Source: Chiloscyllium plagiosum (lineage: Eukaryota). From it: 64,000 nt of DNA. This document shows, in pieces, positions 9,401-64,000 of the stretch. Position 1 is the first letter of the stretch; every line of letters starts with the position of its first letter. The notes beneath the pieces were generated by a model, which saw only the letters and a program-made list of their open reading frames with translations, was not told the origin of the DNA and did not search any database. The translations under genes and the position numbers were made by a program. The stretch is from positions 70,899,790 through 70,963,789 of the forward strand of contig NC_057718.1 in assembly GCF_004010195.1 (NCBI RefSeq), in the 5' to 3' direction.

Positions 9401-10199
9401 ACTAAAAAATCACACAACACCAGGTTATAGTCCAACAGGTTTATTTAAAAATACTAGCCGTCACAGTGCTGCTCCTCCATCAAATAACTAGTGGGGTAGG
9501 TTCATAAGACACAGAATTTAAAGTAAAATCACAGTGTCATGCAATTCAAATGATATATTGAACAAACCTAGATTGCTATTAAATTTTTCATCTTTTAGGA
9601 TGGGTTGCAGGTTTCAGTTCATTAATGTATAACCAAAACCTGCAAACCATTTGAAATGATGAAAGACTTAACAGCAATTTAGATTTGCTCAATATATCAT
9701 CTTAATATATGCCCCACTAGTTACCAGATGAAGGAGCAGCATTCTGAAAACTAGTACAGGTAGACAACCCTTTATCTGAAATTCCGAAATCTGAAAAGCT
9801 CCAAAATCTGAAGGATTTTGTGAAGTTTTCATCTCATTAACAAGCTTGTGTGGCATGCAAACAGTTAACCCAACTCCACACCCACTCGATGCGTGTCACT
9901 CAGATATAACGCCAGGGGGTGGCAATGGCCCAGCACTGGCAGGCCTCAATTCTATTTCAGGGCCCGTAGTACTCACAGTGAGTCTGCTGTTTGCTAAGTC
10001 ACTTTTAAATTTCACCATCAAAATGCCACCTATTCTAAAATTCGAAAAATTCTGAATTTCAAAAACTAGCTGGTCCTGAGCATTTTGGATAAAGGTTTGC
10101 GTACTTGTACTTCCAAATAAACCTGTTGGACTATAACCTGGTATTGTGAGATTTTTAACTTTGTCCACCACAGTCCAACACCGGCACCTCCACATCATT
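9401..10199. mobile_element. Fold-back Penelope-like element (family A) with a nested MITE
   Basis: Inverted pLTR arms (from ~9403 and ending ~10159), a ~40-nt 3' tail, and a flanking CCTACATCT duplication (9392-9400 / 10200-10208). Confidence 0.75.
9757..10107. mobile_element. Tc1/mariner-pogo (Tigger-like) MITE
   Basis: Imperfect TIRs CAGGTAGACAACCCTTTATCTGAAAT / ATTTTGGATAAAGGTTTGCGTACTTG, with TA on both sides. Confidence 0.75.
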
Positions 10200-20349: not shown

Positions 20350-21524
20350 GATATCACTGAGCCGGGTCAAAGTGAGTAGAGTTCGCTGATCATGTTGATT
20401 CCCAAACCTGATGGTACTCAAACAAATCTGCGTGGATTATTAGAAGATCAATGCCGTAACCAAATTCGACTCATACCCAATTCCATGACTGGAGGACTGT
20501 GTAGAAAAGGTTGGACAAGCCACTTACATCACAAAGTTGGACGTATCTTATGGTTACTCTTTGTTGGAGAGAGCTAACAAAGTTTCTGCATTTGTAACCC
20601 CAAATGGGCTATTATCGATTTAAGTAATGCCCTTTGGAATGAAGAACATACCAGCCACATTTGAAAGATTTATGAACAGAGTTGTGGCAAGATTGACTAA
20701 TTGTACCATCTATATGGATGACTTAGTAATCTTTAACCATTCATGGAAAGATCACATGGTGCATTTGGCAGAGCTCTTTGAAAGATTACATAAGGCAAAT
20801 GTGGTTATAAATTTAGCAAAAATTTGCGAAGGCAGAAGTGACGTTCTTGGGACACAACATTGGACATGAAAGGATGACTCTGAGGAATGTGAAGACGAAG
20901 GCCATCGAGGAATTTCCAAGACCATCCTCAAACAAAAAGATTTTTGAAACTGAGCGGATTTGACCATAACTTTGTTCCAAACTTTAGTAGTACAGTGGCA
21001 CTGCTGACACATTTGCTAAAAAAAAACACAAAGTTTCAGTGGATAGAACAATGTCAGAGGCATTTGAGAATTTAAAAGCCATGTTAACCACCATACTAGC
21101 TTCAGCTATACTAAATTTCTTGAAATTTAGTTACAATAATTGAAATTTAGTTGAAAGTTGCAATCGATGCAAGCGATGTAGGGTTGGAGCTATGTTGATG
21201 CAGGAGGGTGATTTAGAATTGAAAGGTCAAATTGGTTATTTTTTAAAAAAAAACCTCAATATCCATCAGAGAAAATATTCCACCATTGAAAAAGAATTAT
21301 TGTGTTTGGTACTAGTGTTACAACATTTTAATGTTTATGTTACGAACAAAACACCAGAGATAGTTGTATATACTGACCACAACCCTCTGACCTTTTTGGA
21401 AAGATTTAAGGACAAGAATATGAGACTATTTTGTTGGAGTTTTATGTTAGAAGCATTTAATTTACAAAGTGGACATGTTGCATTTCATAAAAACATTATT
21501 GCAGATGCGTTATCACGGGTTTAA
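20350..21524 (+). pseudogene. Gmr1-like reverse transcriptase + RNase H remnant
   Basis: LIPKPDG, MPFGMKN and YMDD (RT); DAS, YSTIEKELL, VYTDHNPL and NIIADALSR (gypsy RNase H). Confidence 0.85.
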
Positions 21525-26759: not shown

Positions 26760-29660
26760 GAACACACAACAAAGAAAACTACAACACAGGAACAGACCCT
26801 TCGGCCCTCCAACCCTGCACCAATCCAGATCTTCCATCCAAACCTGTTGCCTATTTTCTAAGGGTCTGTTTCCCTTTGCACCCTGTCCAATCATGTATCT
26901 GTCTAGATAGATCTTAAATTACACTATTGTGCCTGTCTCTACCGCCTCCACTGGCAATGCATTCCAGGCACCCACCACCCTGTGTAAAGAACTTTTCACG
27001 GTATATCCTTTAAACTTTTCCCCTCTCACTTTGAACTTGTGACCCCTAGCAATTGAGTCCCCCACTTTGGGAAAAAGTTTCTTGCTATCCACCCTGTCTA
27101 CACCTTTCATGATTTTGCAGACTTCAATCAGGTCCCCCATCAACTTCCATCTTTCTAATGAAAACAATCCTAATCTACTCAACCTCTCCTCATAGCTAGC
27201 TAGCACGCTCCATACAATGCAACATCCTGGTGAACCTCCTCTGCACCCTCTCCAAAGCATCCACATCCTTTTCATAACGTGGCAACCAAAACTGTATGCA
27301 GTATTCCAAATGAGGCCAAACCAAAGTCTTACACAATTGTAATATGACCTGCCAACTCTTGTACTCAATACCCCATCCAATGAAAGAAAGCATGCCATAC
27401 GCTTTCTTGACTATTCTATTGACCTGCGTTGCCACCTTCAGGGAACAATGGATCCGAACACCCAGATCTCTCTGTACATCAATTTTCCCCAGGACTTTTT
27501 CATTTACTGTATAGTTCGTTCTTGAACTGGATCTTCCAAAATGCATCATCTTGCATTTGCCCAGATTGAACTCCACCTGTCATTTCTTCGCCCAACCCTT
27601 CAAACTATCTATAGTCTGCTGTATTCTCTGGCAGTCCCCTTCACTCCATCAATCATAGTGTCATCGGCAAACTTACTAATCAGACCACCTATTCCTTCCT
27701 CTAAATCATTTGTGTATACCACAAACAACAGTGGTCCCAGCACAGATCTCTTTGGAACACCATTGGTCACAGGTCTCCATTTTGAGAAACTCCCTTCCAA
27801 TATTCCTCTTTGTCTCCTGTTGTCCAGCCAGTTCTTTATCCATTTAGCTAGTACACCCTGGACCCCATGCGACTTCACCTTCTCCATCAGCCTACCATGG
27901 GGAACCTTATCAAATGCCTTATTGACGTCCGTATATATGACATCTACAGTCCTTCCCTCATCAATCAACTTTGTCACTTTCTCAAAGAATTTTATTAAGT
28001 TGGTAAGACATGACCTTCCCTGCACAAAACCATGCTGCCTATCACTGATAAGCCCATTTTCTTTCAAATGGGAATATATCCTATCCATCAGTACCTTCTC
28101 CAGCAGCTTCCTACCACTGACGTCAGGCTCACCAGCCTATAATTACTTGGATTATTCCCTTCTACCTTTATCAAACAAGGGGACAATATTAACAATTCTC
28201 CAGTTCTTGGGGCCTCATCTGTGTTCAAGGATGCTACAAAGATATCTGTTAATGCCCCAGCTATTTCCTCTCTTGCTTCCCTCAGTAACCTGGGATAGAT
28301 CCCACCTGGACCTGGGGAACTTATCCACCTTATTGCCTTTTAGAATACCCAACACTTCCTCCCTCCTTATGCCAACTTGACCTACACTAATCAAACATCT
28401 ATCCCGAACCTCAAACATCTGTCATGTCTCTCTCCTTGGTGAATACCGATGCAAAGTACTTGTAAAGAATCTCACCCATTTTCCTCTGACTCCATGCATA
28501 ACTTTCCTACTTCACCCTTTCCCTAATTACCCTCTTGCTCCTTATATATGAATAAAAGGCTTTGGGATTTTCCTTAATCCTGGTCACTAAAGATCTCATG
28601 ACCCCTTTTAGCCCTCTTAATTCCTTGTTTCAAATTGGTCCTATTTCCTGATCTTTTTCCAAAGCTTTACCTGTCTTCAGTCACCTAGGCCTGTATGCTT
28701 CCTTTTTTCCTCTTAGCTAGTCTCACAATTTCACCTGTCATCCATGGTTCCCTAATCTCGCCATTTCTATCCTTCATTTTCACAGGAACACGTCTTTCCT
28801 GTATTCTAATCAACCTGTATTTAAAAACCTCCCACATATCAAATGTGGACTTACCTTCAAAAGGCTGGCCCCAATCTACATTCCCCATCTCCAGCTGAAT
28901 TTTGGTATAGTTGGTGTTTCCCAAATTTAGCACTCTTCCCTTAAGACCACTCTTGTCTTTGTCCATGAGTATTCTAAAATTTACAGAGTTGTAATCACTA
29001 TTTCCAAAGTAATCCCATACTGGAACTTCAACCACCTGGCTGGGCTCATTCCTCATCACCAGGTCCAGTATAGCCCCTTCGAGTTAGACTATTTACATAC
29101 TGCTCTAGATAAAACAATGACTGCAGATGCTGGAAACCAGATTCTGGATTAGTGGTGCTGGAAAAGCACAGCAGTTCAGGCAGCATCCAAGATGCTGCCT
29201 GAACTGCTGTGCTTTTCCAGCACCACTAATCCACATACTGCTCTAGGAAACCCTCCTGGATATTCCTTACAAATTTTGCTCCATCTAGACCTCCAACGCT
29301 AAGTGAATCCCAGTCAATGTTGGGAAAATTAAAAACTCCTATCACCACTACCCTGTTGCTCCTAGATCTTTTCATTATCTGTTTACATATTTATGCCTCT
29401 ATTTTATGCTTGCTGCAGGCATATAGTACAGCCCCAACATTGTTACCGTACCCTTCCTATTTCTGAGCTCTGCCCATGTTGCCTCACTGCTCGAATCCTC
29501 CGTAGTGCCCTCCTTCAGCAGAGCTGTGATATCCTCTTTGACCATCAATGCATCGATATCCTGGGACATTTAGTTGTCAATCATGCCCTTCCCTAAACCA
29601 AGTCTCAGTAATATCATACTCGCAGGTATTAATCCAAGCCCTAAATTCATCAGTTAGTTC
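26760..29660 (-). mobile_element. CR1 LINE ORF2 (endonuclease to 3' end) nested in the Poseidon element
   Basis: QHGFVQGRSCLTNL, FADD and ITETW motifs. Confidence 0.88.
29109..29232 (-). mobile_element. 124-bp fold-back micro-PLE
   Basis: 42-bp perfect inverted arms (29146-29187 / 29191-29232), 37-nt tail, TSD ACATACTGCTCTAG. Confidence 0.85.
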
Positions 29661-31053: not shown

Positions 31054-31208
31054 TACTGATGCATTTAAAGGATCCGTACCCACAGCTAGTGGAACAAATG
31101 TTATATACAAAATACCCTGCAAGAACTGCAACAAACATTACACTGAACAAACCAAGAGGAAACTAGCCACCAAGATACATGAGCACCAACTAGCCACCAA
31201 AAGACATG

Positions 31209-31388
31209 GAGAAAGTGAGAACCACAGATACTGGAGATGTCAAGAGTCGAGAAAGGTGGTGCTGAAAAAGGATCTGAGGAGCAGGAGAGTCGACGTTTCA
31301 GGTATGAAGGGTTTATGCTCAAAATGTTGACTCTTCTGCTCCTCGGATGTTATCTGACCTGCTGCGCTTTCCACACCACCTTTTTGTT
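31209..31388 (-). mobile_element. Degenerate fold-back micro-PLE
   Basis: Tail plus inverted arms, with TSD CACCAAAAGACATG (31195-31208 / 31389-31402). Confidence 0.75.
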
Positions 31389-31413
31389 CACCAAAAGACA
31401 TGATCAAATATCA

Positions 31414-38150: not shown

Positions 38151-38402
38151 CTTTATATTCCCAGTTTAGTCGTTGAACTTAAATTCCACCAACTACCTTG
38201 TTTGAATTTGAACCCATGTCAACAGAACACTAGCCTGGGCCTACGAATACTAGTCCAGCTGCATTTACATCTGTGCCCCCAACTCCCTGTGCCATGATGC
38301 CCATCACCATACCGAGTGACACAGATGTGATAAGCACAAATTAACTTTATTAGACAGCAATACATCGCAGAGGTAACTCCAATAAATGGTACAAGCAAAT
38401 AA

Positions 38403-39056
38403 GATTCACCTGCACCTCCACACACATCATCTATTGCATCCTCTGCACCCGATGTGGTCTCCTCTATATTGGGGAGACAGGCCGCCTACTTGCGGAGCGT
38501 TTCAGAGAACACCTCTGGGACACCCGGACCAACCAACCCAACCACCCTGTGGCTCAACATTTCAACTCCCCCTCCCACTCCACCAAGATATGCAGGTCTT
38601 TGGACTCCTCCATCGCCAAACCACAACAAAACGACGGTTGGAGGAAGAACGCCTCATCTTCCGCCTAGGAACCCTCCAACCACAAGGGATGAACTCGGAT
38701 TTCACCAGTTTCCTCATTTCCCCTCCCCCCAGCCTGTCTCAGTCAAATCCATCAAATTCAGCACCGCCTCCCTAACCTGCAAACTTCTTCCCGACCTCTC
38801 CGCCCCCACCCCAATCTGTCCTATCACCCTCACCTTGACCTTTTTCCACCTATCACATTTCCGACGCCCCTCCCCCAAGTCCCTCCTCCCTACCTTTTAT
38901 CTTAGCCTGCTGGACAAACTTTCCTCATTCCTGAAGAAGGGCTTATGCCCGAAACGTCGATTCTCCTGTTCCCTGGATGCTGCCTGACCTGCTGCGCTTT
39001 TCCAGGAACACATTTTCAGCTCTGATTACCAGCACCTGCAGACCTCACTTTCTCCG
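38403..39056 (+). mobile_element. 5'-truncated Neptune-type PLE (GIY-YIG + pLTR + tail)
   Basis: FTCTSTHIIYCILCTRCGLLYIGETGRLLAERFREH; TSD CAAGCAAATAA (38392-38402 / 39057-39067). Confidence 0.88.
38927..38962 (+). ncRNA. Minimal hammerhead ribozyme motif (family N1)
   Basis: CTGAAGA-A-GGGCTTATGCCC-GAAACGTC. Confidence 0.7.
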
Positions 39057-40435: not shown

Positions 40436-41430
40436 GAATTCACCAAAGTTGCACCTTCCAAACTCAAGACTTGCATCTTTTAGAAGGACAAGGACAGCAG
40501 ATGTATGGGAACACCACCACCCATAAGTTCCCCTCAAAGCTACACAATCCTGATTTGAAGCTATATTACTATTATGCCACTCCTTTACTATCACTGGATC
40601 AAGATCTGGAACTCTTTTCCAAGCAACATTGTGACTATACCAAGTTCACCTTCCAAGAAGTTGCTCATTATTGTTTTCTCATGGGTAATTAGGGATGGGC
40701 AACAAATGAGACAAACTGGCCAGAGATGAGTCATGGATAGGAGTGCAAGCCACTGGACTTTATGAATCGAATGACTTATCCATGTCCCCTGAAAAAATGC
40801 ACTGTCCCTGATACCTTGCTGGTGAACTAGCTATCATTAGATCCAAAACAGAGGAAATGGGAAACATTGCTTCAGATCTCAGTGGTACAGCACGCCCTTT
40901 AATGTGAGTCAATTGAGGGACATGATCGATCACTTTTTAAACCGGGTGATGCAATAGAAAAATGTTTCTACCAAATGCTTCAGGTCTGCCTAGAACAGGA
41001 ACTGGATGATGAAGAGGAAGATACATTTATATTGTTAGCCTGTGACTGTAGTGTCAGATCAGCTCTTCTGGGGACCTCAAAACATGGGACTTTAGAGGAC
41101 ATACTGGGTTTGAGTCTGCTGTGCCTTCTCACCAAACACACATTCATATGACTCCTCCTCAATGGTTGCATAAAGTCGGATTGTCTGCTAGACTCTGCTA
41201 TTCAGGGAAATGGACTCACTACCATTTACTTCCAAAAGTCATGGTTAGCGGCTAACCTGCTATTTGACAGCCAGCCTCATGAATATTCAGTTTCAGTACC
41301 AAGAATCCTAATGAGCCCTTTGAAGTGAAAATTGAAAGGGGTGAATGATATTGGCGGGGTTAGCAGGGGAAGTTCCAAAAATTCTTATTGTTGGTTCTTC
41401 ATAGGTAATAGAGGGCCAATGGTGTACAGG

Positions 41431-41897
41431 GCTGAAAATGTGTTGCTGGAAAAGCGCAGCAGGTCAGGCAGCATCCAGGGAACAGGAGAATCGACGTTTC
41501 GGGCATAAGCCCTTCTTCAGGAATGAGGAAAGTTTGTCCAGCAGGCTAAGATAAAAGGTAGGGAGGAGGGACTTGGGGGAGGGGCGTCGGAAATGTGATA
41601 GGTGGAAAGAGGTCAAGGTGAGGGTGATAGGTCAGACTGGGGTGGGGGCAGAGAGGTCAGGAAGAAGATTGCAGGTTAGGAAGGCAGTGCTGANNNNNNN
41701 NNNNNNNNNNNNNNNNNNNNNNNNNNNNNNNNNNNNNNNNNNNNNNNNNNNNNNNNNNNNNNNNNNNNNNNNNNNNNNNNNNNNNNNNNNNNNNNNNNNN
41801 NNNNNNNNNNNNNNNNNNNNNNNNNNNNNNNNNNNNNNNNNNCAGCAACACATTTTCAGCTCTGATCTCCAGCATCTGCAGACCTCACTTTCTCCTC
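41431..41897. mobile_element. Fold-back PLE (family N1), centre in an N gap
   Basis: GCTGAAAATGTGTTGCTG ... CAGCAACACATTTTCAGC plus a 37-nt tail. TSD A(A/T)TGGTGTACAGG. Hammerhead at 41489-41524 on the minus strand. Confidence 0.8.
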
Positions 41898-42010
41898 ATT
41901 GGTGTACAGGGTTTGGTGTTCATTTGCAGAATTCAAAGGGGCTGTGAAAGACTGGGCAATCAAATTACCCACAAATATGGAGACGGAAAGACAAGAATTG
42001 GCAGGCATAG

Positions 42011-45094: not shown

Positions 45095-46560
45095 CCTTCA
45101 GGGCTCTCCACTTCTTCCTGCAGCAAAGGTCTAAACTATCCCCATCCACCACCACCGTGTTCCACTTGACCAAGTTCATTCTTACCCTCAACAACTACTC
45201 TTTTAACTCCACTTGTTCTCTTCAGATCAGAAGGGTAGCCATGGGCACCCATGTTATTTCAGAGTGGTGTTGAAAAAGCACAGTAGGTCAGGCAGCATCC
45301 GAGGAGCAGGAAAATCAACGTTTCGAGCAAAAGCCCTTCATCAGGACCCGAAACATTGATTTTCCTGCTCCTCGGATGCTGCCTGACCTGCTGTGCTTTT
45401 CCAGCAACACTCTGATCTAAACTCTGGTTCCAGCATCTGTAGTCCTCACTTTTGCCGAGGCTCCAGTTATGCCTATTTCTCCATGGGGTACATTCCTTGT
45501 TCTAGTCCTATTCTGGCTACCTCCTTCTCCAGTATATTGATAATATAATTGGTGCTACTTCCCTTTCTCGTTTGGAATTGGAAAAGTTCATTGGTTGCGC
45601 TTCCAATTTTCACCCCACCCGCACTTTCACCTAGTCTATCTCTGACTCCTCCCTTCCCTTCCTTGATATCTCTGTTTCCATTTCTGGGAATAAACTGACC
45701 ACTAACATTCACTATAAACCCACTGTCTCCCACAAAAAATTCTGGACTATGCACCCTTGCACCCTGTTTCTTTTAAAGACGCCATGTCATTCTCCCAGTT
45801 CCTCCGCCTCCATCACAAATGTTTTGATGAGGTCAACTTTGTCAAGGGAGCCTCCGAAATGTCCACCTCTTCAATCAAGGATTCTTCAGCACCATTGTCA
45901 ATAGGGCCCTCAACTGCATCCGGCCCATATCCAGTGCTTCTGCCCTCACGCCCTCTCTTCCTTCCTACTACAATGACAGGGTTCCCCTTGGCCTTACCTA
46001 CTAGACCATCAGCATCCTCATCCAGAAGATCATCAGCTGCCATTTCCACCACCTCCAGTGAGATGCCACCACCAGACACAAATTCTGCTCCCCTCTCTTG
46101 TTTGCCTTCTGCAGGGACTGTTCCTTCCAGGACATGCTGATCCACTCTTCTTTCACTTCCAACTCTCTCCCATAGCTCCATGGCACCTTGCAATGCAACC
46201 ACCAAAGGTGTAGCACCTGCCCATTTACCTCCCACCTCCCCAGTATCCAAGAGCCCAAACATACCTTCCAGGTGAAGCAGACTTTATCTGCACTTCTCAC
46301 AATCTAGTCTATTGCATTCGTTGTTCATAATGTGGTCGCCTGGGTGACCACTTCACAGAACATCTAAATTCTGCCCGCAAAAATGATCCTGAGCTTTTAA
46401 TTGCCTGCAACTTTAACACACCATTCTGTTCCCTCGCCATCATCTCTGCCTCAGGCTTGCTGCAATGCTCCAGTGAAGCTCAGTATAAACTGGAAGAACA
46501 ACACATTTCCATTTGGGGATTCTGCAGCCCTCTTGGACTCAATATTGAGTTTAATAATTT
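45095..46560 (+). mobile_element. Neptune-type PLE RT-GIY-YIG fossil (3' pLTR probably resumes at ~48190-48490)
   Basis: QIRRVAMGT, YIDN (for YIDD), LPFLDISV, FSQFLRL, Cys-rich linker RCSTCP, and NLVYCIRC. Confidence 0.75.
45259..45456. mobile_element. Fold-back micro-PLE (family N2) inserted in the PLE RT motif
   Basis: Inverted arms plus a ~40-nt tail. Hammerhead on the minus strand at 45313-45346 (CTGATGA-A-GGGCTTTTGCTC-GAAACGTT). Confidence 0.75.
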
Positions 46561-50270: not shown

Positions 50271-51116
50271 ACCATTATAAGGAAAGGGAAGAAAAAATCC
50301 AATTCTCCAGGTCAGGAAATTATGAAATATTCCTCAAAATGATGAAAGAAGTGTTCAGGCCAGAATATCAGAAGAATTTCAGAATGGGCTGGTTGTGAAG
50401 TGGAAATTATATAGAAATCAAGCAGTGGGTTTAGATCAGCAAACTTGAAGTTAAGTCGGGCAGCTGTAAGTTTGCGAAAGGTATGTTATCATTTTGGATA
50501 CCTTGCAAAGGATTGTCAGACTTTGATGGATGAACAGGCATGGAACCACTGTACAAATGTGGCCATGGACATAATGACCACTGGACTGTGGGAGAAAGAA
50601 AGGAGGAGAGACAAAAGCTTACACCCAATAGTTGACCAGAATAGATGTTTCTAAGAGCAGATGGGACCCAGCAACTTGGTGGAGACTAGCCCTCTGATCA
50701 CTCAGGATAGGAGACACCCATATGTTTGTTGATGTGCTGTTAGGGGGCCAGGAGTGTAGTATGTTACAGGGGTATCTGTCTTGATTACAGATTTGGACTT
50801 GTCAGCAACATTGAAAACTATAACTGTGTCTAGGATAGGAGAACAACTTAGACTAAAGCAAAGTGAAAGGTTAATAATCCCTCTCCAGGTATAGATGTGT
50901 AAGAGGATGAAAGAAGTATTCTCAGAGTGGACCATTTAACAAAACCGTACACTTTAATTAGCCACAGGGTGGTAAGATAAATATACTTGACCCTCTTAAA
51001 TTACACCTTTATTATAAAATAGCTGTGTTGAGCAACAAAGCGAAACAACATGGGAGGCAACACTGTGACCAAAGGACAAATCAATATTGTATTCCATGAT
51101 GATAAGGTTACCTATT

Positions 51117-51373
51117 GTTGAAACTTTATTGCTGGAACAGCACAGCAGGTCAGGCAGCATCCAGGGAACAGGAGATTCGACGTTTCGGGCACAGGCCCTT
51201 CTTCAGGAATGAGCAGAGAGTCCTGAAGAGACCTCTCTGCTCATTCCTGAAGAAGGGCCTGTGCCCGAAACGTCGAATCTCCTGTTCCCTGGATGCTGCC
51301 TGACCTGCTGTGCTGTTCCAGCAATAAAGTTTCAACTTTGATCTCCAGCATCTGCAGACCTCACTTTCTCCTC
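51117..51373. mobile_element. 257-bp perfect fold-back micro-PLE with two hammerhead motifs
   Basis: 104-bp perfect inverted arms (51117-51220 / 51233-51336), 37-nt tail, TSD TAAGGTTACCTATT (51103-51116 / 51374-51387). Confidence 0.92.
51243..51278 (+). ncRNA. Minimal hammerhead ribozyme motif (mirror copy on the minus strand at 51175-51210)
   Basis: ATTC-CTGAAGA-A-GGGC(CTGT)GCCC-GAAA-CGTC-GAAT, with stem I fully paired. Confidence 0.78.
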
Positions 51374-51487
51374 TAAGGTTACCTATTAGATGGCATTCTA
51401 TCAGAGGGGGATTAGCATAGTTGCAGGAATTAGAGGGGGAATCTCCAAGAACATTAAACAAAATGAATTGAGGAAGTGGATTGGCAA

Positions 51488-54420
51488 GGGGAGGCAATGC
51501 CCTAGTGCTATTATCACTTGACTATTAATCCAGAAACCCAGCATAATGTTTTGGAGACCTGGGTTCGAATCCTGGCGTGGCAGATGATGGAATTCGAATT
51601 CAATTAAGAAAATCTGGAACTAAGAGCAGACTGATGACCATGAAACCATTGTCAATTGTTGAAAAAAACTCATCAAGTTCACTAATGTCCTTTAGGGAAG
51701 GATATCAGACATCCTTATCTGGTTTGGCCTACATGTGACTCTAGAGCCACAGCAATGTGGTTGACTCTCAACTGCCCTATGAGATGGCCTAGCGAGCCAC
51801 TCAGTTGTATCAATTGCTAGAAAGTCACAACAAAGAAATGAAAATGGACGGACCACCTGGCACCGATCTTGGAACCTGAAAAGATAATGGCAAAAACACA
51901 AACATCCCTGTTGACCGTGAAAAGTCCTTCTTACCAATATATGGCGGCTAGTGCTAGACTTTGAACCGATCCGGCAGCTCAAGACTGGGCATCCATGAGG
52001 TGCTGTGGGCCATCAACAACAGCAGAACTGTACTCCAACACAATCTGCAACCTCATGGCCTGGCATACCCCCCGCTCGACCATTACCATCAAGCAAGGGC
52101 ATCAACCCTGGTTCAGTGGAGAGTGTAGGAGGGCATGCCAGGAGCAGCATCAGGCATACCTAAAAATGAGGTGTCAACCTGGTGAAGCTATCAAAAGGGC
52201 TACTTGCATGCCAAACAGCAAGTGGTAGACAGAGCTAAGTGATACCATAGCCAATGGATAAGCTCTGCAGTCCTTCTACATCCAGTTGTGAATGGTGGTG
52301 GACAATTAAACAACTCACTGAAGGAGGAGGCTCCACAAATATCCCCATCCTCAATGATGGAGGAATCCAGCACATCAGTGCAAAGGATAAGGCTGATGCA
52401 TTCACAACAATCTTCAGTCAGAAGTGCCGAGTGGATGATCCATCTTGGCCTCCTCCAGTGGCCCCCAGCCACAGATACCAGTCTCCAGCCAATTCAATTC
52501 ACTCCACGTGATATCAAGAAACAGCTGGAGGCATATGATATTGCAAAAGTAATGGGCCCTGATAACATTCCGGCAATAGTACTGAAGATGTGTGCTCTAG
52601 AACTTGCTGCTCCCCTAGCCAAACTCTTCTAGTACAGTTGCAACACTGGCATCTACTAGACAATGTGGAATTATTAGACATTATTAGACCTTTAGTAGAC
52701 ATTTCAATTGACAGGTGTGTCCTGTACACAAAAAGCATGACAAGTTCAAACCGGCCAATTATTGTCCAATCAGTCTACTCTCCATTATCAGTAAAGTGAT
52801 GGAAGGGGTTATCAACAGTGCTACCAAGCAGCACCTGCTCAGTGACACCCAGTTTGGGTTTCACCAGGGTCACTCAGATCCTGATCTCATTACAGCCTTG
52901 GATCAAACATGGACAAAAGAGCTAAATTCCAGAGGTGAGGGGAGAGTGACAGCCCTTGATGTCAAGACCACATTTGACCAAGTATGGCATCAAGGAGCCT
53001 TGGCAAAACTGGAATCAATGGGTAGGAGAGGGGGCAAACACTCCACTGGTTAGAGTCATACCTGGCACAAGGGAAGATGGTTGTGGTTGAGGAGGGTCAA
53101 TCATCTCAGCTGCAGGACATCTCTGCAGGAGTCCATCAGGATAGTGTCCTAGGCCAAAAAAACTTCAACTACTTCATCAATGACCTTCCCTCTGTCATAA
53201 GGTCAGAAGTGGAAATGTTCACCGATGATTGCACAGCTTTCAGCACACCATTCGTGACTCCTCAGATACTGAAGCAGTCTGTATTCAAATGAAACAAGAT
53301 CTGGACAATATCCAGACTTGGGCCAATTAGTGGCAAGTAACATTCCTGCCACATAAATGCCAGACAATGACCATCACCAATAAGAGGCACTCTAACCACC
53401 GCCCCTTGACATTCAACGGTATTACCACCACTGAATCCCCCACTGTCAACATCTTTGGGGTTACCATTGACCAGAAACTCAACTGAACTCACCACATAAA
53501 CACGCTGGTGACAATAGCAGGTCAGAGGCTAGGGATATTGCGGCAAGTAACTCACCTTCTGATACCCCAAAGTCTATCCACCATCTGCAAGGCACAGGCC
53601 AGGAGTGTGATGGAATACTCCCCACTTGCCTGATTGGCTGCAACTCCAAAACACTCAAGAAGCTTGACACCATCCAGGACAAAGTAATCTGTTTGATGGG
53701 CACCACATCTACAAACATTCAATACCTCCTCCACCACCAGTGCTCAGTAGCAGCAGTGTGTACTATCTACAAGACGCACTACAGAAATTCACCAAAGGTT
53801 CTTAGACAGCAGCTTCCAAACCCATTAGATTACATTACATTACATTACATTACATTACAGTGTGGAAACAGGCCTTTCAGCCCAACAAGTCCACACCGAC
53901 CTGCCAAAGCGCAACCCACCCATACATTTACCCCTTACCTAACACTACGGGCAATTTAGCATGGCCAATTCACCTGACCTGCACATCTTTGTGACTGTGG
54001 GAGTAAACTGGAGCACCCGGAGGAAACCCACGCAGACACGGGGAGAACGTGCAAACTCCACACAGTCAGTCCCCTGAGGCGGGAATTGTAAGGCAGCAGT
54101 GCTAACCACTGTGCCACCGTGCCGCCCATGACCACTTCCATCGAGAAGAACAAGGGCAGCAGGTACTTGGGAACACCACTATCTGCAAGTTCCACTCCAA
54201 GCCACTCACAACCCTGATTTGGGAATATTTCGCCGTCCTTCATAGTTGTTGGTTGAAAATCCTGGAATTCCCGCTCTATCAGCATTGTGGGTCAATCCAC
54301 AACAAGTGAACTGCGGTGATTTAAGAAGGCAGTAACCACGAACTCCTCAAAGGCAAATAGAGATGAGCTATCAATGTTGGCCAGCCAGTGATGCCCAAGT
54401 CCCACAAATTAATTTTTAAA
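51488..54420 (+). mobile_element. Non-HER1 LINE (CR1/Jockey-group-like RT) with a tRNA-like 5' head
   Basis: B-box GGTTCGAATCC at 51562-51572. GPDNIP, PISLLSIISKVME, QFGF, FDQVWH and FTDD motifs. The 3' tail is shared with 40430-40730. Confidence 0.75.
53825..54126 (-). mobile_element. HE1 SINE nested in the LINE
   Basis: (ACATT)n tail variant, flanked by CCCAT on both sides. Confidence 0.85.
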
Positions 54421-54611
54421 AAATGACTTTATGGATGGGGTTCCATGTGTATGTGAGCAGAAATCCGTGTAGTGGCGGTTGAACAAATGTGAACAAGAGA
54501 AAGGTAGAAAGCAATGGAAAATAGGAAACGTTTCAACCCCAGGTAGTAGAACTAGTGGCACTAAAGGAAGACATATGTGCCACAGAAGAGAGAAGGGCTA
54601 ACATTTATACA

Positions 54612-54701
54612 TCCCTGATGAAGGGCTTTTGCCTGAAACGTTGATTTACCTGCTCCTCGGATGCTGCCTGACCTGCTGTGCTTTTCCAGCACCACTCTAA
54701 T
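54612..54701 (+). mobile_element. 90-bp tail-less PLE insertion starting at a hammerhead
   Basis: TSD CTAACATTTATACA (54598-54611 / 54702-54715); CTGATGA-A-GGGCTTTTGCCT-GAAACGTT. Confidence 0.8.
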
Positions 54702-56741
54702 CTAACATTTATACAGGCAGTAGGTCTGCCTTTGGGATAGTACGTGATTACACAGTAGCATGGAGCTAGGGGGGTACATCGCTTCAAAAGGATGGCATAG
54801 ACAACATGAGACAGTAAGTAAGGAATTAATAGATACTGCTAGACTACCACTAGTAGCAGCAGTGGTAAAGGTTAAAGGATGTCAGAAGAAAACTGAACCT
54901 ATTCAATAGGGTAATCAATGGACAGATGAAGCAGCTAAGAAAGCAGCTACAATAGGCCTTGAGCATCAGGTTGTAGCAGTATCAATTGGGCTAGGGGGAA
55001 TAAATATAGTAGATTTGCACCAGGATATGAAAGAGGATGAGTAAAGACAGTGGGAAGAACAAGAGTCAGTAAAAGGTGTCATTGGCATTTGTTGAAAAGC
55101 AGAAAGGGTTGCATCACTATGCTGCATTCAGCATGACCTAATGAAAATGCACCTTGGAAATGCACACCATGGAGGGAAACTATGTTGGGGAAGATAGACA
55201 TTTGCTGGTGATGGCATGGAACAGGAAGAGACATAGCAAAACACTCAGAAATACCTGGTATGTGCCCAACATAACCCAGGAAGACCAGTCAAGTGAGTTC
55301 CAGATTCCTACCTTCTGGGTGAAAATGTATTTTCTCACATACCCTCTAAACCTCCAGCCCCTTACCTTAAATCTATGGCCCGATCATTGAACCTTCCAAG
55401 GAGAATAGTTTCATATAAGGAAAACAACCCCAGTTTTGCCATTCTCTCTTATCTGAACAGCATACGTCTTCAGTCCAGGCAACATCATGGTAAATCTTCT
55501 CTGCATGTGCGATTACATCCTTCCTATAATGGAAGATTCAAGAGCAGTACTCTAGTTGTAGCCTAAATAATGTTTTCATGCATCACCTTGCACTTATCAG
55601 AATTGAATTCATTTGCCACTGATTAGCCCATCTGCCTGGCCCATCTTATCCTCCTGTAGCCTAAGGCTATCCTCCTTGGTATTTACCAGCCCACCAATTT
55701 TGGTGTCATCCACAAATGTACTGACAAACCCTCATGCATTCAAGTCTAAATTGTTTATATATATATATATATACCATAAACAGCAAGGACCCCAATACTT
55801 ATCCCTGCAGCATGCCAGGATGCAGGCTTCCAGTTACAAAACACCCCTCGACCATCATCATCTACTTTCTGCTACCCAGTCAATTCTGTAACCAATTTGC
55901 CAAACTTCCTTGGATCCCATGGGCTCTTACCTTTGCTATCAGTCTTCCATGCAGAACTTCATCAAAATCTTACTGAAGTCCAAGTAGACCAAATTGAATG
56001 CATTGCCATCTTTACCAACCTGCTTACCTCTGAAAAATTTTAATCAAGTCCATTAAGTGTGACTGCCTGTTAACAAAATGATGCTGACTGTTCTTGAATA
56101 ATCACTGGCTCTCCAAGTGCAGATTAATTCTGTCCCTCATTTAGAATCTTATCTTTGTCCTCTGGCTCCATGCACAAATTACTACCATGGTGCTTAATGG
56201 AACCTACTTTTTCTTAGTTTTGCTTTTGATTAGATTCCCTACAGGGTGGTAACAGGCCCTTTGGTCCAACCAGTCCACACCGACCCTCCAAAGAGCAACC
56301 CACCCAGACCCATTTCCCTCTGACTAATGCACCTAACACTATAGACAATTTAGCATGGCCAATTTACCTGACCTGCACATCTTTGGACTTTTATCCCTAA
56401 TGTATTTAGATCTTTCCCTTATTTTACTTATCATTATTCTTTCATGCCCCTATTATGTTCTCTTGATTTACTGATTTTCTTCTTAAGTTTCCCCTTGCAT
56501 GTTCTGTACTCCTCACGGTGTTCTGCTGTTTTGAGCCCTCATCTACCATAGGTTTCCCTTTTTCTTTTTATCCAATATTGTATATCCCTTGATATCCAAG
56601 GTTCACAGGATGTGATTGTCTTTATTGGAACACGTTGGCCTTATACTCTCTATGTTTCTTTCTTGAATGCGTCTCACTGTTCTGACACAATACACTTAAT
56701 GGTATTGGCTACATCCAAATCATACTTGATCTTATTAAAGT

Positions 56742-56832
56742 TAAAAATCACACAACACCAGGTTATAGTCCAACAGGTTTAATTGGAAGCACACTAGCTT
56801 TCGGAGCGACGCTCCTTCATCAGGTGATAGTC
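56742..56832 (-). mobile_element. ~90-bp tail-less PLE (family A) insertion
   Basis: TSD GATCTTATTAAAGT (56728-56741 / 56833-56846). Confidence 0.82.
56792..56826 (-). ncRNA. Minimal hammerhead ribozyme motif (family A)
   Basis: Minus strand: CAC-CTGATGA-A-GGAGC(GTC)GCTCC-GAAA-GCTA-GTG. Confidence 0.78.
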
Positions 56833-58174
56833 GATCTTATTAAAGTCAGCCTTCCCTCAGTTTAGAACTTTGATTTTAGATCCATTCTTGTCCTTTTCCA
56901 TGACAATCTTGAATGGAGCTATGATCTCTGATGTGTAAAATTGTCCCACATTGATAGTTTAGCCACTTTTCCAGCTTTGCTATCTAAAGTTAAGTCCAGA
57001 ATTGCTTCCTTTCTTGTAGTCGTAGCGTCATAGAGACATACAGCATAGAAACAGAACCTTCAGTCCAACTTGTCTATGCCGACCAGACATCCTAAAAAGA
57101 TGAATTCCCAATTGCAAGCATTTGGCCCATATCCCTCTTAACCCTTCCTATTCGTATACCCATGCAAATGCCTTTTAAATGGTGTAATTGTACCAGCCTC
57201 CACCACTTCCACTGGCAGCTCATTCCATACAAGTACCACCCTTTGTGTGCAAACATTGCCCCTTAGGTCCCTTTTAAATCCTTCTCCTCTCACCTTAAAC
57301 TAATGCCTTCAAGAATCACAGAATCCCTACTGTGTGGAAGCAGGCCATTCAGCGCATCGCGTCCACACTGACCCTCTGAGGAGCATCTCACCTAAACCCA
57401 TCCCCTGATCCTATCCCTGCATTTCCCATGACTAATGCCCCTAGCTTGTACACCCATGGACACTATGGGTAATTTTGCATGTCAAACCCACCTAACCTAC
57501 ACATCATTGGACTGTGGGAGGAAACCCACACAGTCACAGAGAGAATATGCAAACTCCACACGGACAGTTGCCCGAGGCTGGAATTGAACCTGGGTCCCTA
57601 TGAGGCAGCAGTGCTAACCACTGAGCCACCGTGCTGTCTCATCTAGTTTTGGACTCCCCCACCTTGGGGAGAAGATCTTGTCTATTTACCTTATCCATGC
57701 CCCTCATGATTTAAAAAAACCTATATAAGTTCACCCCTCAGCCTCCTATGCTCTAGGGAAAATAGCCCCAGTGTATTCAGCCTTTCCCTCTAGCTCAAAC
57801 CCTCCAAGCCTGGCAACATCCTTGTAAATCTTTTTCGGATCCTTTCAACTTTCACAACATCCTTTCTATAGCAGGGAGACCATAATTGCACACAGTATTC
57901 CAACTGCCTAACAATATCCTATAAAGCTAAGACATGACGTCCCAACTCCTAGACTCAACACACTGATCAACAAAAGCAAGCATACCAAACATCATCTTCA
58001 CTGTCTTATCTACCTGTGACTCCACTTTCAAGGTCTCTTTGTTCAGCAATACTCCCCAGGACCTTGCCATTAAGTGTTTAAGACCTCTGCTGATTTGCCT
58101 TTCCAAGATGCAACATCTCACTTTTATCTATCATATTTGTCACAAATACCTTCCAACATTTTTGACAACACTAC

Positions 58175-60640: not shown

Positions 60641-60759
60641 GTTAAAAATCACACACACCAGGTTATAGTCCAACAGGTTTAATTGGAACCACACTAGGTT
60701 TCAGAGCGCCACTCCTTCATCAGGTGAACTTTCTACACCCTAGTCCAACACCAGCAAAT
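60641..60759. mobile_element. Family A micro-PLE: inverted body plus forward tail only
   Basis: Imperfect TSD CTATGACTCTAGTT / CTACGACTCAAGTT. The tail resembles 10158-10195. Confidence 0.7.
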
Positions 60760-62097
60760 CTACGACTCAAGTTGGAATTGTCTTATGCCTACATTTTAGA
60801 GCAGAACATCTTCTGTGATTGTCATTCCTATGCAGTCGAATGTCTCTAATGATCCGACTCTGGTCTGTTTTGCCGATTTCCTCTCTTCACAGTTATCCCT
60901 TCCGCAATGCAGAGCTCCTGAAATAGCTCATTAAGCTCCTCTGTATCCATTTCTCTCTTAAAGTCCCTATTTAAATCCCTTTGACTATACTTTTGGCTAT
61001 TCCTTTTAAATAACTTTTCCTTTAGTTTGCCTCCTTTGTAAATTATGTCTCTGTCACTTCAGGCTGTTTTTCTATGTTAAAGCTGCTATATAAATGCAAA
61101 ATGTGGTTTTTAGATGAAATATTAAATGCATTGTAACAGGTGTCAAACATTTTAAATTCAATGTTCTTGAAATATAATTAAGTAAATGTTGGGACTTAAA
61201 AACATGCCAAGTGATATACACACCGAGAAAAAATGGAGCCTTCAGGGATGTTTCTTAATTGCAATATAATATAGTTGACAGAAGAAATTTTATGAGCATC
61301 ACATTGAAAATCTTCTTTATTAAAGATACTTGTAAAAATAAACACCAAAACTACATTGTAGAATAAATTGCATAGTTATGGTGTGGTTGGGGGCTCTTAC
61401 CCAGAATACACAGAGCAAAGTAACCCTGGGGTCAATGCTGTGATTCTACACTGTAATATATGGCGCAGTTACCTGATATACATCCTATTCGTGAATAGTT
61501 GTCTTATCCCTCACTTTCAAAGACGAACATTGATAAACAATAGCATTATTTTACATTTTATGACACATACTTTGTTGAAACTATAGGTATTTTTACTGTG
61601 ATAGCCTTGAGTTAATGTTCGTCAGTAGATACAGGAGCAGGATACTCTCCAAGGAAAGCAGAATATTTTATAGCTAACTGGCTTTGTGAGTAAAGTGTAA
61701 GCCTTGTCAGTCTTTGCTACTTATTTATTGAATGATTTCCAATGTACTTATTTCCATTTACTGTCATAATTGCTTTTCTTCCCATTGTAAATATGTCATT
61801 ATTTAGCTAATTTATTTATTTGAAGATGCAGGTGATACATTTCATTACGAGTTGACCCAAGAGATAAGCAGAAGCATTGCACTGCAGTCCTTGACACTGA
61901 TTGGGGAAAATACAAAGGGCCTTTGGGAGAGAGTGTGATTTTTTTTTCTCCATTAGATAACATTACTTGTTAGAAAGTATGAGCACGACAGCATTTTTTT
62001 TTTACCCTTTACTTAAATGGTGGCAACTCCTGGGTTAAAATATGATATCAAACCACTTAAGAATAGAAATCATAGTTTGGTGAGGATCCAGAAGAAT

Positions 62098-62510
62098 TTT
62101 AAGAAGATTTGTAGCTCAGATTGAGGTTCTTGATGTAGGTTTGCTCGCTGAGCTGGAAGATTTGTTTTCAGTCATTTCATCACCATAATAAGTAACATCT
62201 TCAGTGAGCCTCCGAAGGAAGCACTGGTGGTGTGGCCCATGTTCTACTTATATGTTTGAGTTTCCTAGGGTTGATGATGTCATTTCATTTGGTGACATCA
62301 TTCCATATGGTGATGTCATTTCTGGTTCTTTTTCTCAGAGGGTGCTAATTAAGATCAAACTCAATGTGTTTGTTGATAGAGTTCCAGTTGGAATACCATG
62401 GGGGCTATACTACCAGTGCTTCATTTGGAGGCTCACTGAAGATGTTACCTAGTATGGTGATGAAATGTCTGAAAACGAACCTTCCAGCTCAGCAAGCAAA
62501 CCTATATCCA
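62098..62510. mobile_element. Fold-back Poseidon-type PLE
   Basis: Inverted pLTR arms, ~32-nt tail, TSD GATCCAGAAGAAT (62085-62097 / 62511-62523). Confidence 0.8.
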
Positions 62511-63429
62511 GATCCAGAAGAATCTTTGGAAAATCCACGTAATCTAAATTAAAACAGTCCCACAAAAGTTAATAGGTTATTATATTTAGAGAGGAAATGT
62601 ATCAGATTATATTATTTTTCTGTATTTTGTTCATCGTTACCAATTATGTTTTTAAAACTGCAGTAAACTAACCTACTTGAAGAAGCAAATAATTATTATG
62701 CTTGAAGAATTTATTAATATCAAACTGAATAATGTGGATTAATTTTCCACGAAGTTCAGATCTTTGAGTTAAATGTCGCAAGACTGCTGCAACAATACGT
62801 TTCCCAGAGGCAAACAATTGGCCATCTACATGTTCACTATCCAGTTAAGAACGGCACGAAATTTCTCTGCCAAACCCGTACAGGAAAGGGATGGTGGCAA
62901 AAGACTCAACAACCCTATTTGGAGATTGAAGAACGAAAGGGTGTGTCAAAGTAGGGTGCCGTTAAGATGTTGAAAAATGTACACAAAAAAAAAAATCAAA
63001 TAGTCGAAGGTCAGAGACAATTGGAGCGATGGGCAAATACCCCCGAGTGGATCATTTTAGCCATGAATATACAGTTCCCTGTATGCAGTCCCACCCAACA
63101 ATTTGCAGTCTGGGTCGCCTCCATTGAATACATTCCTCAGGTGGCAGTAAAATCTTTCCTATTTGGGGTCTTGGTCGCTTAAGTGTGAGGAAATTCTCAG
63201 GCTGTCCTGGAAAAGTTGATTGATGGCAGGAATGTGTTGCGTTGTCCCGATGCTGCTTTATTTCCCTTGATAATTGGTGTCAGAATTAAAGTGCAGGCGT
63301 TGAAAGACCCCAAAATCCTGGCCATCACGTTTAGTGGATTTTACCAGATGGACAAAGACCATCACCTGTAGCGTTCAATTCCACTGTACAATGGATAATT
63401 TAAGACTGACTCATTTCTTGAAATACAGA

Positions 63430-64000
63430 TTTCAGATATGGTTCTGTTCGCCGAGCTGGAAGTTTTTGTTGCAAACGTTTCGTCCACTGTCTAGGTGACA
63501 TCCTCAGTGCTTGGGAGCCTCCTGTGAAGCGCTTCTGTGGTGTTTCCTCCGGCATTTATAGTGGCCTGTCCCTGCCGCTTCCGGTTGTCAGTTTCAGCTG
63601 TCCGCTGTAGTGGCCGGTATATTGGGCCCAGGTCGATGTGTTTGTTGATGGAGTTTGTGGATGAATGCCATGCCTCTAGGAATTCCCTGGCTGTTCTCTG
63701 TCTGGCTTGCCAGGGAATTCCTAGAAGCATGGCACTCATCCACAAACTCCATCAACAAACAAATCGACCTGGACCCAATATACCGGCCACTACAGCGGAA
63801 CCTGAAACTGACAACCGGAAGCGGCAGGGACAGGCCACTATAAAGGCTGGAGGAAACACCACAGAAGCGCTTCACAGAAGGCTCCCAAGCACTGAGGATG
63901 TCACCTAAACAGGGGANNNNNNNNNNNNNNNNNNNNNNNNGCGAATACCTTGTATAGGTGTTCCTCTTCCTCTTTTTGCCGTTCTGGTGTGCTGCAGTGT
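63430..64000. mobile_element. Young Poseidon-type PLE, fold-back, running into a gap
   Basis: AREFLEAWHSSTNSINK is encoded on both strands. Arms at ~63490-63690 and 63709-63915. Confidence 0.85.
63471..63510 (-). ncRNA. Minimal hammerhead ribozyme motif (Poseidon family)
   Basis: Minus strand: GCA-CTGAGGA-T-GTC(ACCTAGACAGTG)GAC-GAAA-CGTT-TGC. Confidence 0.75.

Follow-up and report, generated by a model that had tools for sequence, protein, structure and literature searches.

Complex insertions of Penelope-like elements (PLEs) that carry an endonuclease (EN+) have a described layout. Canonical PLE insertions contain an inverted, 5'-truncated pLTR copy and a tail of 30-40 bp at one end only (Craig et al. 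2021, fig. 2, PMC8557442). The inverted pLTRs described by Arkhipova et al. (2013, PMC3846280) are accompanied by target-site duplications (TSDs) of 8-10 bp, a 31-bp tail and palindromes at the inverted junctions, and the same layout is given as curation advice in PMC8969392. The biochemistry comes from the Poseidon element PAc of Anolis carolinensis (Frangieh et al. 2024, PMC11167929), whose PLE protein, a predicted dimer, cleaves and extends both strands. Reverse transcription starts at two internal sites, the interval between them is the 30-40-bp tail, and hammerhead cleavage is not needed; a product in which two cDNAs are joined is not among the in vitro results. The minimal hammerheads of metazoan PLEs require a second sense copy; they occur on opposite strands as dual motifs with a spacing of ~100-700 bp, and truncated PLEs give rise to single ones (Cervera and De la Pena 2014, PMC4209133). 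By the working definition of bioRxiv 10.64898/2026.07.22.740005, animal retrozymes are built of units repeated in tandem, so that two or more hammerheads follow each other in series.

The window analyzed here, a 64-kb stretch of transposon-rich cartilaginous-fish DNA, contains an insert in which two stubs of a PLE end module with a hammerhead stand head to head, the tail being present on one and absent from the other (Table 1). This layout is not unusual and corresponds to the described PLE insertion pattern: complex EN+ PLE insertions have the same head-to-head truncated copy, one-ended tail, outer TSD and repeat hammerhead (PMC8557442, PMC3846280). The TSD of 14 bp differs from the 8-10 bp of the rotifer PLE examples (PMC3846280), and in contrast to the rotifer and fly Penelope insertions described, the present locus is from a shark, putatively Neptune-type, ORF-less and only 257 nt in total. 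The literature search, which covered few subscription papers, listed no paper devoted to shark PLE hairpins or to twin priming in PLEs, and the supplements of PMC4209133 and PMC8557442 may hold shark examples. The particular shark PLE subfamily may be undescribed; its kind is known. A single locus of this kind matters little. As a clean, minimal PLE integration with a verified empty site it is a test case for the origin of the inverted repeat and tail, and it serves the question of whether two primed cDNAs are joined or one cDNA is folded back.

Table 1. Features of the insert and of related fold-backs in the 64-kb window.
Feature	Position	Strand	Remarks
Left TSD copy, 14 bp, TAAGGTTACCTATT	51103-51116	+	Direct repeat with the right copy; organism B, in which the orthologous site is empty, has it once
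Inverted, tail-less, 5'-truncated copy of PLE end module (pLTR)	51117-51220	-	Of the two family termini, its outer end is the inner one
Minimal type I hammerhead motif	51175-51210	-	Core C3 at 51206; predicted cut after 51179
Unpaired centre, 12 nt, TCCTGAAGAGAC	51221-51232		Head-to-head junction of the two module copies
Sense copy of PLE end module	51233-51336	+	Hammerhead core lies 14 nt downstream of its start
Minimal type I hammerhead motif	51243-51278	+	Core C3 at 51247; predicted cut after 51274
PLE tail, 37 nt, one end only	51337-51373	+	Tail end is the outer family terminus
Right TSD copy, 14 bp, TAAGGTTACCTATT	51374-51387	+	
Fold-back, 124 nt	29095-29246		14-bp TSD, perfect 42-bp arms, 3-nt centre, 37-nt tail
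Fold-back	31195-31402		14-bp TSD; adjoins a second PLE GIY-YIG remnant
Fold-back, sister subfamily	41420-41911		12-bp TSD, same tail, centre is N gap 41694-41842
Fold-back stub	45254-45457		23-nt centre, no TSD found

The coordinates that a sequence-only reading had assigned to the TSD, the 104-bp arms, the 12-nt spacer and the 37-nt tail are all correct on re-check, and its observation of zero arm mismatches holds for the assembly sequence, in which 104/104 positions of the arms are exact reverse complements. The TSD pair cannot be extended on either side. The hairpin has a folding energy of -241.3 kcal/mol compared with -90.7 ± 4.9 kcal/mol in 100 shuffles (z -30.9), and the chance expectation of the flanking 14-mer pair is 2e-5 for the ranges searched; therefore, neither the 104-bp hairpin nor the 14-bp TSD is a product of chance. 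The insert, extremely truncated and with no ORF between its arms, codes for nothing, as had been claimed. An ATG at 51293 opens a frame of 27 codons that runs to the end of the tail, and the one candidate ORF-start peptide had no scoring match in the protein search (0/1).

The PLE origin of the insert, also proposed earlier, is supported by the match of the right arm plus tail to positions 38924-39055 of the window (89% identity over 132 nt; 119/134 ungapped). An element ends with this segment, and the remnant of its ORF, upstream, contains a GIY-YIG domain (Pfam PF01541, E 3.6e-5, above cut-off). The endonuclease remnant (38357-38596) is 73-76% identical to proteins named from bamboo shark, 56-62% identical to proteins of another shark and a skate, and 53-56% identical to full-length proteins with reverse transcriptase (RT) and GIY-YIG domains and a CX2-5CxxC linker. 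This linker marks Neptune and Nematis alike (PMC8557442); for the Neptune clade it is taken together with a CCHH motif. It is located upstream of GIY-YIG in 6/11 relatives, including P0002 (73% identical) and the full-length P0005 and P0007, and is read from these relatives, the GIY-YIG copy in the window being cut off before it. Neptune is presumably to be preferred over Nematis on host range and linker length, and the source element would be a Neptune-type, GIY-YIG endonuclease-bearing PLE. The subfamily of the insert is a sister of that of the 38.9-kb copy, which would not be the exact parent. The locus combines membership of a GIY-YIG family, a one-ended tail in the 30-40-bp range, an inverted 5'-truncated copy, a TSD and a pLTR hammerhead motif. 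A screen for host genes using 139 stop-free frames of at least 85 aa gave 17 Pfam matches at E 0.01, 16 of them to transposon domains, and revealed no host exon, although short exons would escape such a screen. The sole non-transposon match among the 139 frames is a weak one to DUF3399 at 20755-21015 on the minus strand (E 0.0023, below cut-off). The subfamily pattern has no matches in metagenome contig collections or in viral contigs, and the six contig loci found with a shorter pattern are all chance 23-25-nt matches with nothing alike beyond the pattern.

The termini of the module recur across the window. TSDs were searched at 11 chosen window loci and an anatomy routine was applied to six chosen fold-backs. 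Duplications of 12-14 bp are present at 6/11 loci, only 7-8-bp matches at one and none at four. The tails of the five fold-backs homologous to the module, the present locus included, measure 37, 40, 37, 38 and 37 nt, and a fold-back of another family has a 32-nt tail and a 163-nt centre. The inverted arm ends at the same point, 37-40 nt short, in 5/5 homologous fold-backs examined. Their readable centres are 12 (present locus), 3 and 23 nt long; one of the remaining centres is hidden in an N gap and one is not separable by the ungapped routine. The tail of the present locus is found again at 41.9, 39.0 and 45.4 kb, and the ends of tail-less copies at 13.6, 29.2, 41.4, 45.3 and 54.7 kb fall at approximately one homologous position. 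The inverted arm of the sister-subfamily fold-back begins at the same point as in the present locus and extends over more than 260 nt. At 54598-54715 there is a solo copy, tail-less and with a 14-bp TSD of its own; it stops approximately at the inner terminus, which identifies this terminus as an independent start site. Tails and inner ends are shared and centres vary, so the two termini belong to the family, whereas each insertion has a centre of its own.

The sequence-only reading had left a choice between a one-off product of PLE integration and a self-propagating family. The fixed family termini, the insertion-specific centres and the empty orthologous site argue for the former, and the identity of the locus as a one-off PLE insertion is highly probable. 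The best explanation, and a likely one, is a single retrotransposition by an endonuclease-bearing Neptune-type PLE. A two-primer mechanism drawn from published PLE biochemistry is also favored, with somewhat less confidence. The GIY-YIG endonuclease would nick both strands 14 nt apart. The bottom-strand 3' end would then prime reverse transcription at the outer start site (the tail end) and the top-strand 3' end would prime at the inner start site, which lies 37 nt deeper. Both cDNAs would stop just upstream of the hammerhead, one at -14 and the other somewhere from -14 to -26, probably at the template's 5' end or close to it, and repair would join the two cDNA 3' ends head to head to leave the 12-nt centre. 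A single source would have served as template for both arms, which would account for their identity; this source is a subfamily whose expansion followed the split from organism B. The model accounts for the fixed position of the inner end and for solo copies that have no tail. PAc and the present locus both have two termini a tail apart and primer ends without homology to the template, and the top-strand primer of the locus ends in ATT, a motif that PAc prefers (PMC11167929). PAc belongs to another clade, Poseidon and not Neptune, and its module holds the ORF start (PMC11167929), for which the 27-codon frame is a candidate at the present locus.

An unlikely alternative to the two-primer mechanism is a one-off PLE insertion in which a single cDNA folds back by self-priming or template switching, with the spacer as the turn-around. 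Perfect arms follow automatically from such an event, and palindromes at inverted junctions are read as self-priming in PMC3846280. Folding back is also an easier explanation than the two-primer model for the 9-nt repeat of the spacer. The opening 9-mer of the spacer recurs at 51245-51253 and is the reverse complement of 51200-51208, which corroborates the earlier remark that the spacer repeats the start of the ribozyme core; with a single folded cDNA, the repeat would be a record of the snap-back. This alternative leaves unexplained why the inverted arm stops 37-40 nt short in every homologous fold-back examined and why a solo tail-less copy has its own TSD, and the in vitro experiments demonstrate a pair of start sites on both strands (PMC11167929). 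Slippage at the join, suggested earlier, would be a candidate origin of the spacer. The 14 arm nucleotides upstream of the hammerhead core match sister copies at 10-11/14 positions and on this comparison are parent-derived. The spacer matches the upstream sequence of the sister subfamily at 5/12 positions in either orientation when ungapped (P 0.16), and global alignment to three sister copies gives P 0.14-0.21 for the plus reading and 0.27-0.50 for the minus reading (3000 spacer shuffles). The spacer may be parent-derived, in either orientation, or templated filler. Two sister copies have a pyrimidine run ending in AG, splice-acceptor-like, 25 nt upstream of the core (38890-38906 and 41545-41561), and the spacer starts one base from the register of this run.

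Four of the 24 sequencing runs listed were aligned to 50800-51700 at 88% likeness. One contig from the related organism B (run X12, depth 7.6) joins 50800-51102 directly to 51374-51456, with a single target copy at the empty site and 15 differing letters in 386 flank positions (3.9%). Both outer junctions are present in two samples of organism A, the source organism: junction contigs cover 50800-51140 with 0 differences and 51351-51658 in run X1, and 50800-51141 and 51353-51565 in run X3. Next to each TSD copy these contigs include 21-25 letters of the element, short of the 31 required for a bridge, as is to be expected of contigs that break off at a repeat. The empty site in organism B and the filled junctions in the two organism A samples establish that the insertion is real and that the 14-bp repeat is a true TSD. 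The inversion is independent of the assembly because the left junction contigs are antisense and the right junction contigs are sense. None of the listed contig pieces crosses the centre (51221-51232), so the 100% arm identity and the spacer are read from the assembly. Similar hairpins in the assembly hold N gaps (41694-41842 and 63917-63940), so the arm identity could be partly the consensus of the assembler; a gap such as 41694-41842 is common where an inverted repeat has to be assembled. Among the joints listed there is no empty allele in organism A, and the X12 empty-site joint is likewise absent from that list. Loose contig ends pile at 51371-51373, with 596 (X1), 586 (X3) and 457 (X12) contigs at 51372, and these ends have unrelated flanks (flank agreement 0.33-0.35).

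The missing bridge across the centre among the listed pieces and the N gaps in two other window hairpins would suit a reading in which the outer junctions are real but the assembly has simplified an inverted structure, longer or less perfect, to the 104/12/104 centre. This is very improbable given that the insert is free of Ns, the spacer sequence is unique, short fold-backs of like build, without gaps and with mismatched arms, are present in the vicinity, and X1 matches the assembly without a difference over 50800-51140.

Non-LTR retrozymes of animals were reportedly described by Cervera and De la Pena in 2020. Non-LTR retrozymes resemble the present locus in being non-coding and PLE-related and in having a type I hammerhead, and differ in being arranged head to tail with at least two hammerheads on the same strand, whereas the locus is an inverted pair with one hammerhead per strand (bioRxiv 10.64898/2026.07.22.740005). 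With this arrangement the locus falls outside the retrozyme definition. The TSD, the hammerheads and the lack of coding capacity would suit a self-propagating, non-autonomous, retrozyme-like hairpin family that moves as a unit with a fixed junction, and non-autonomous PLE derivatives do exist (bioRxiv 10.64898/2026.07.22.740005; non-autonomous Chlamys, PMC8557442). Against such a family are the single copy of the junction within the 64 kb and the different centres of the homologous window copies. Other family copies yield 570 joints across the hairpin, and 15/15 of those listed skip the spacer (51154-51211 to 51240-51293). There are no head-to-tail tandem units, and folding prediction indicates that the single sense minimal hammerhead of each transcript is masked by the antisense arm. 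The proposal of a self-propagating family is thus not sustained, and its chance of being correct is very small. A MITE, or a DNA transposon of the fold-back type with long inverted repeats at its termini, would also be short, non-coding and flanked by a TSD, but its probability is close to nil and it is largely refuted by the homology of the arm to the end of a GIY-YIG retroelement, the 37-nt tail that makes the right-hand repeat non-terminal, the variation of the 12-14-bp TSDs in length and sequence, and the existence of solo and tail-less copies.

A motif scan and helix pairing support the claim of one hammerhead per strand, both motifs being predicted. The plus-strand motif consists of a 4-bp helix I, a CUGAAGA core, an extra A, a 4-bp helix II that opens with a G-C pair, GAAA, and a palindromic, loop-less helix III. 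In the minimal hammerheads of metazoan PLEs (Cervera and De la Pena 2014, PMC4209133) the core is the same, with an extra base between positions 9 and 10.1 and the same G10.1-C11.1 pair, and helix III is likewise palindromic and has no loop. The cores at the present locus are only ~40 nt apart compared with 100-700 bp for the dual motifs, and helix II of the predicted hammerheads is 4 bp long compared with 7-8 bp in Schistosoma (PMC4209133). Rfam gives no match at the gathering score in the whole 64-kb window. Around the locus there are 20 matches up to E 10, all below gathering and none to a hammerhead family. These are mostly to miRNA models that answer to any hairpin, and a miRNA identity was rejected. 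Forcing hammerhead helices I and II within the hairpin costs ~68 kcal/mol in the folding calculation, which agrees with the earlier suggestion that the hairpin sequesters its own ribozyme, a prediction that applies if the whole insert is transcribed. The insert is predicted to be most likely inert because, from whichever side transcription comes, the antisense arm precedes and masks a single sense hammerhead that has no partner.

The age of the insertion is bounded by the flanks. The haplotype of sample S2 differs from the assembly at 8/555 flank positions (1.4%, interval 0.6-2.8%) and contains the insert. A rate from another shark, 7e-10 per generation with a tenfold-wide interval, is given in PMC10587355, and leads to crude age bounds of ~10 and 28 million generations, S2 being possibly a distinct lineage. 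Zero arm mismatches have P 0.22 at the younger bound and P 0.02 at the older. The description of the insertion as recent therefore stands insofar as it postdates the split from organism B and fails insofar as it is not new, being on two haplotypes ~1.4% apart. The subfamily letters at 51194/51259 account for 22-40% of the depth of the family in organism A but for 2% of it in organism B, a contrast in summed depth, which is no copy number, that points to expansion of the subfamily after the split. The S2 haplotype (run X3) also has a 10-nt deletion at 51107-51116 in the left TSD between short GTT repeats; this deletion at the foot of the hairpin is likely a later microhomology deletion.

Transcription was sampled in 2% of the reads of one single-cell polyA run, a weak test in library type and depth. 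The run search listed no RNA data set that contains the element, which is evidence in neither direction. The sample contains 2058 aligned reads, 97% of which continue into unlike sequence, and RNA depth in this 2% is zero on the unique flanks 50800-51109 and 51389-51481. The unlike continuations and the zero depth on the unique flanks indicate that the family RNA derives from other loci, with no sign of read-through here. The insert probably has no function. A broader conjecture, rather improbable, is that the very many fold-back stubs left by this young Neptune subfamily of a shark record in vivo, as direct footprints, the priming of reverse transcription at both nicks of a staggered cut by a dimeric PLE enzyme. 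Where crossed by read-through transcription, these stubs would at the same time be the source of long, perfect double-stranded RNA, which would supply Dicer or ADAR with substrate and silence the parent family. If this were true, the integration chemistry of a retroelement would build its own silencing trigger, and small RNAs against the parent family, if shown, would link the integration mechanism to self-silencing in a vertebrate.

Other structures in the window vary the same build. The 124-nt fold-back at 29095-29246 is truncated ahead of the hammerhead and has the same build without a ribozyme. The stub at 45254-45457 interrupts the RT remnant (45100-46552) of an older PLE of the same clade, as seen by tblastn. 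A palindromic core that might suit a dimeric endonuclease is present in the target sites at 51105-51113 and 41424-41429 and absent from four other window TSDs. Fold-backs of other repeat families occur at 63436-63916, 62085-62523 and 9412-9771, two of them with hammerhead motifs; the first has arms of ~210 nt and a 17-nt centre and ends in an N gap (63917-63940). Short hammerhead-headed stubs of another family are on the minus strand at 56770-56835 and 60645-60735.
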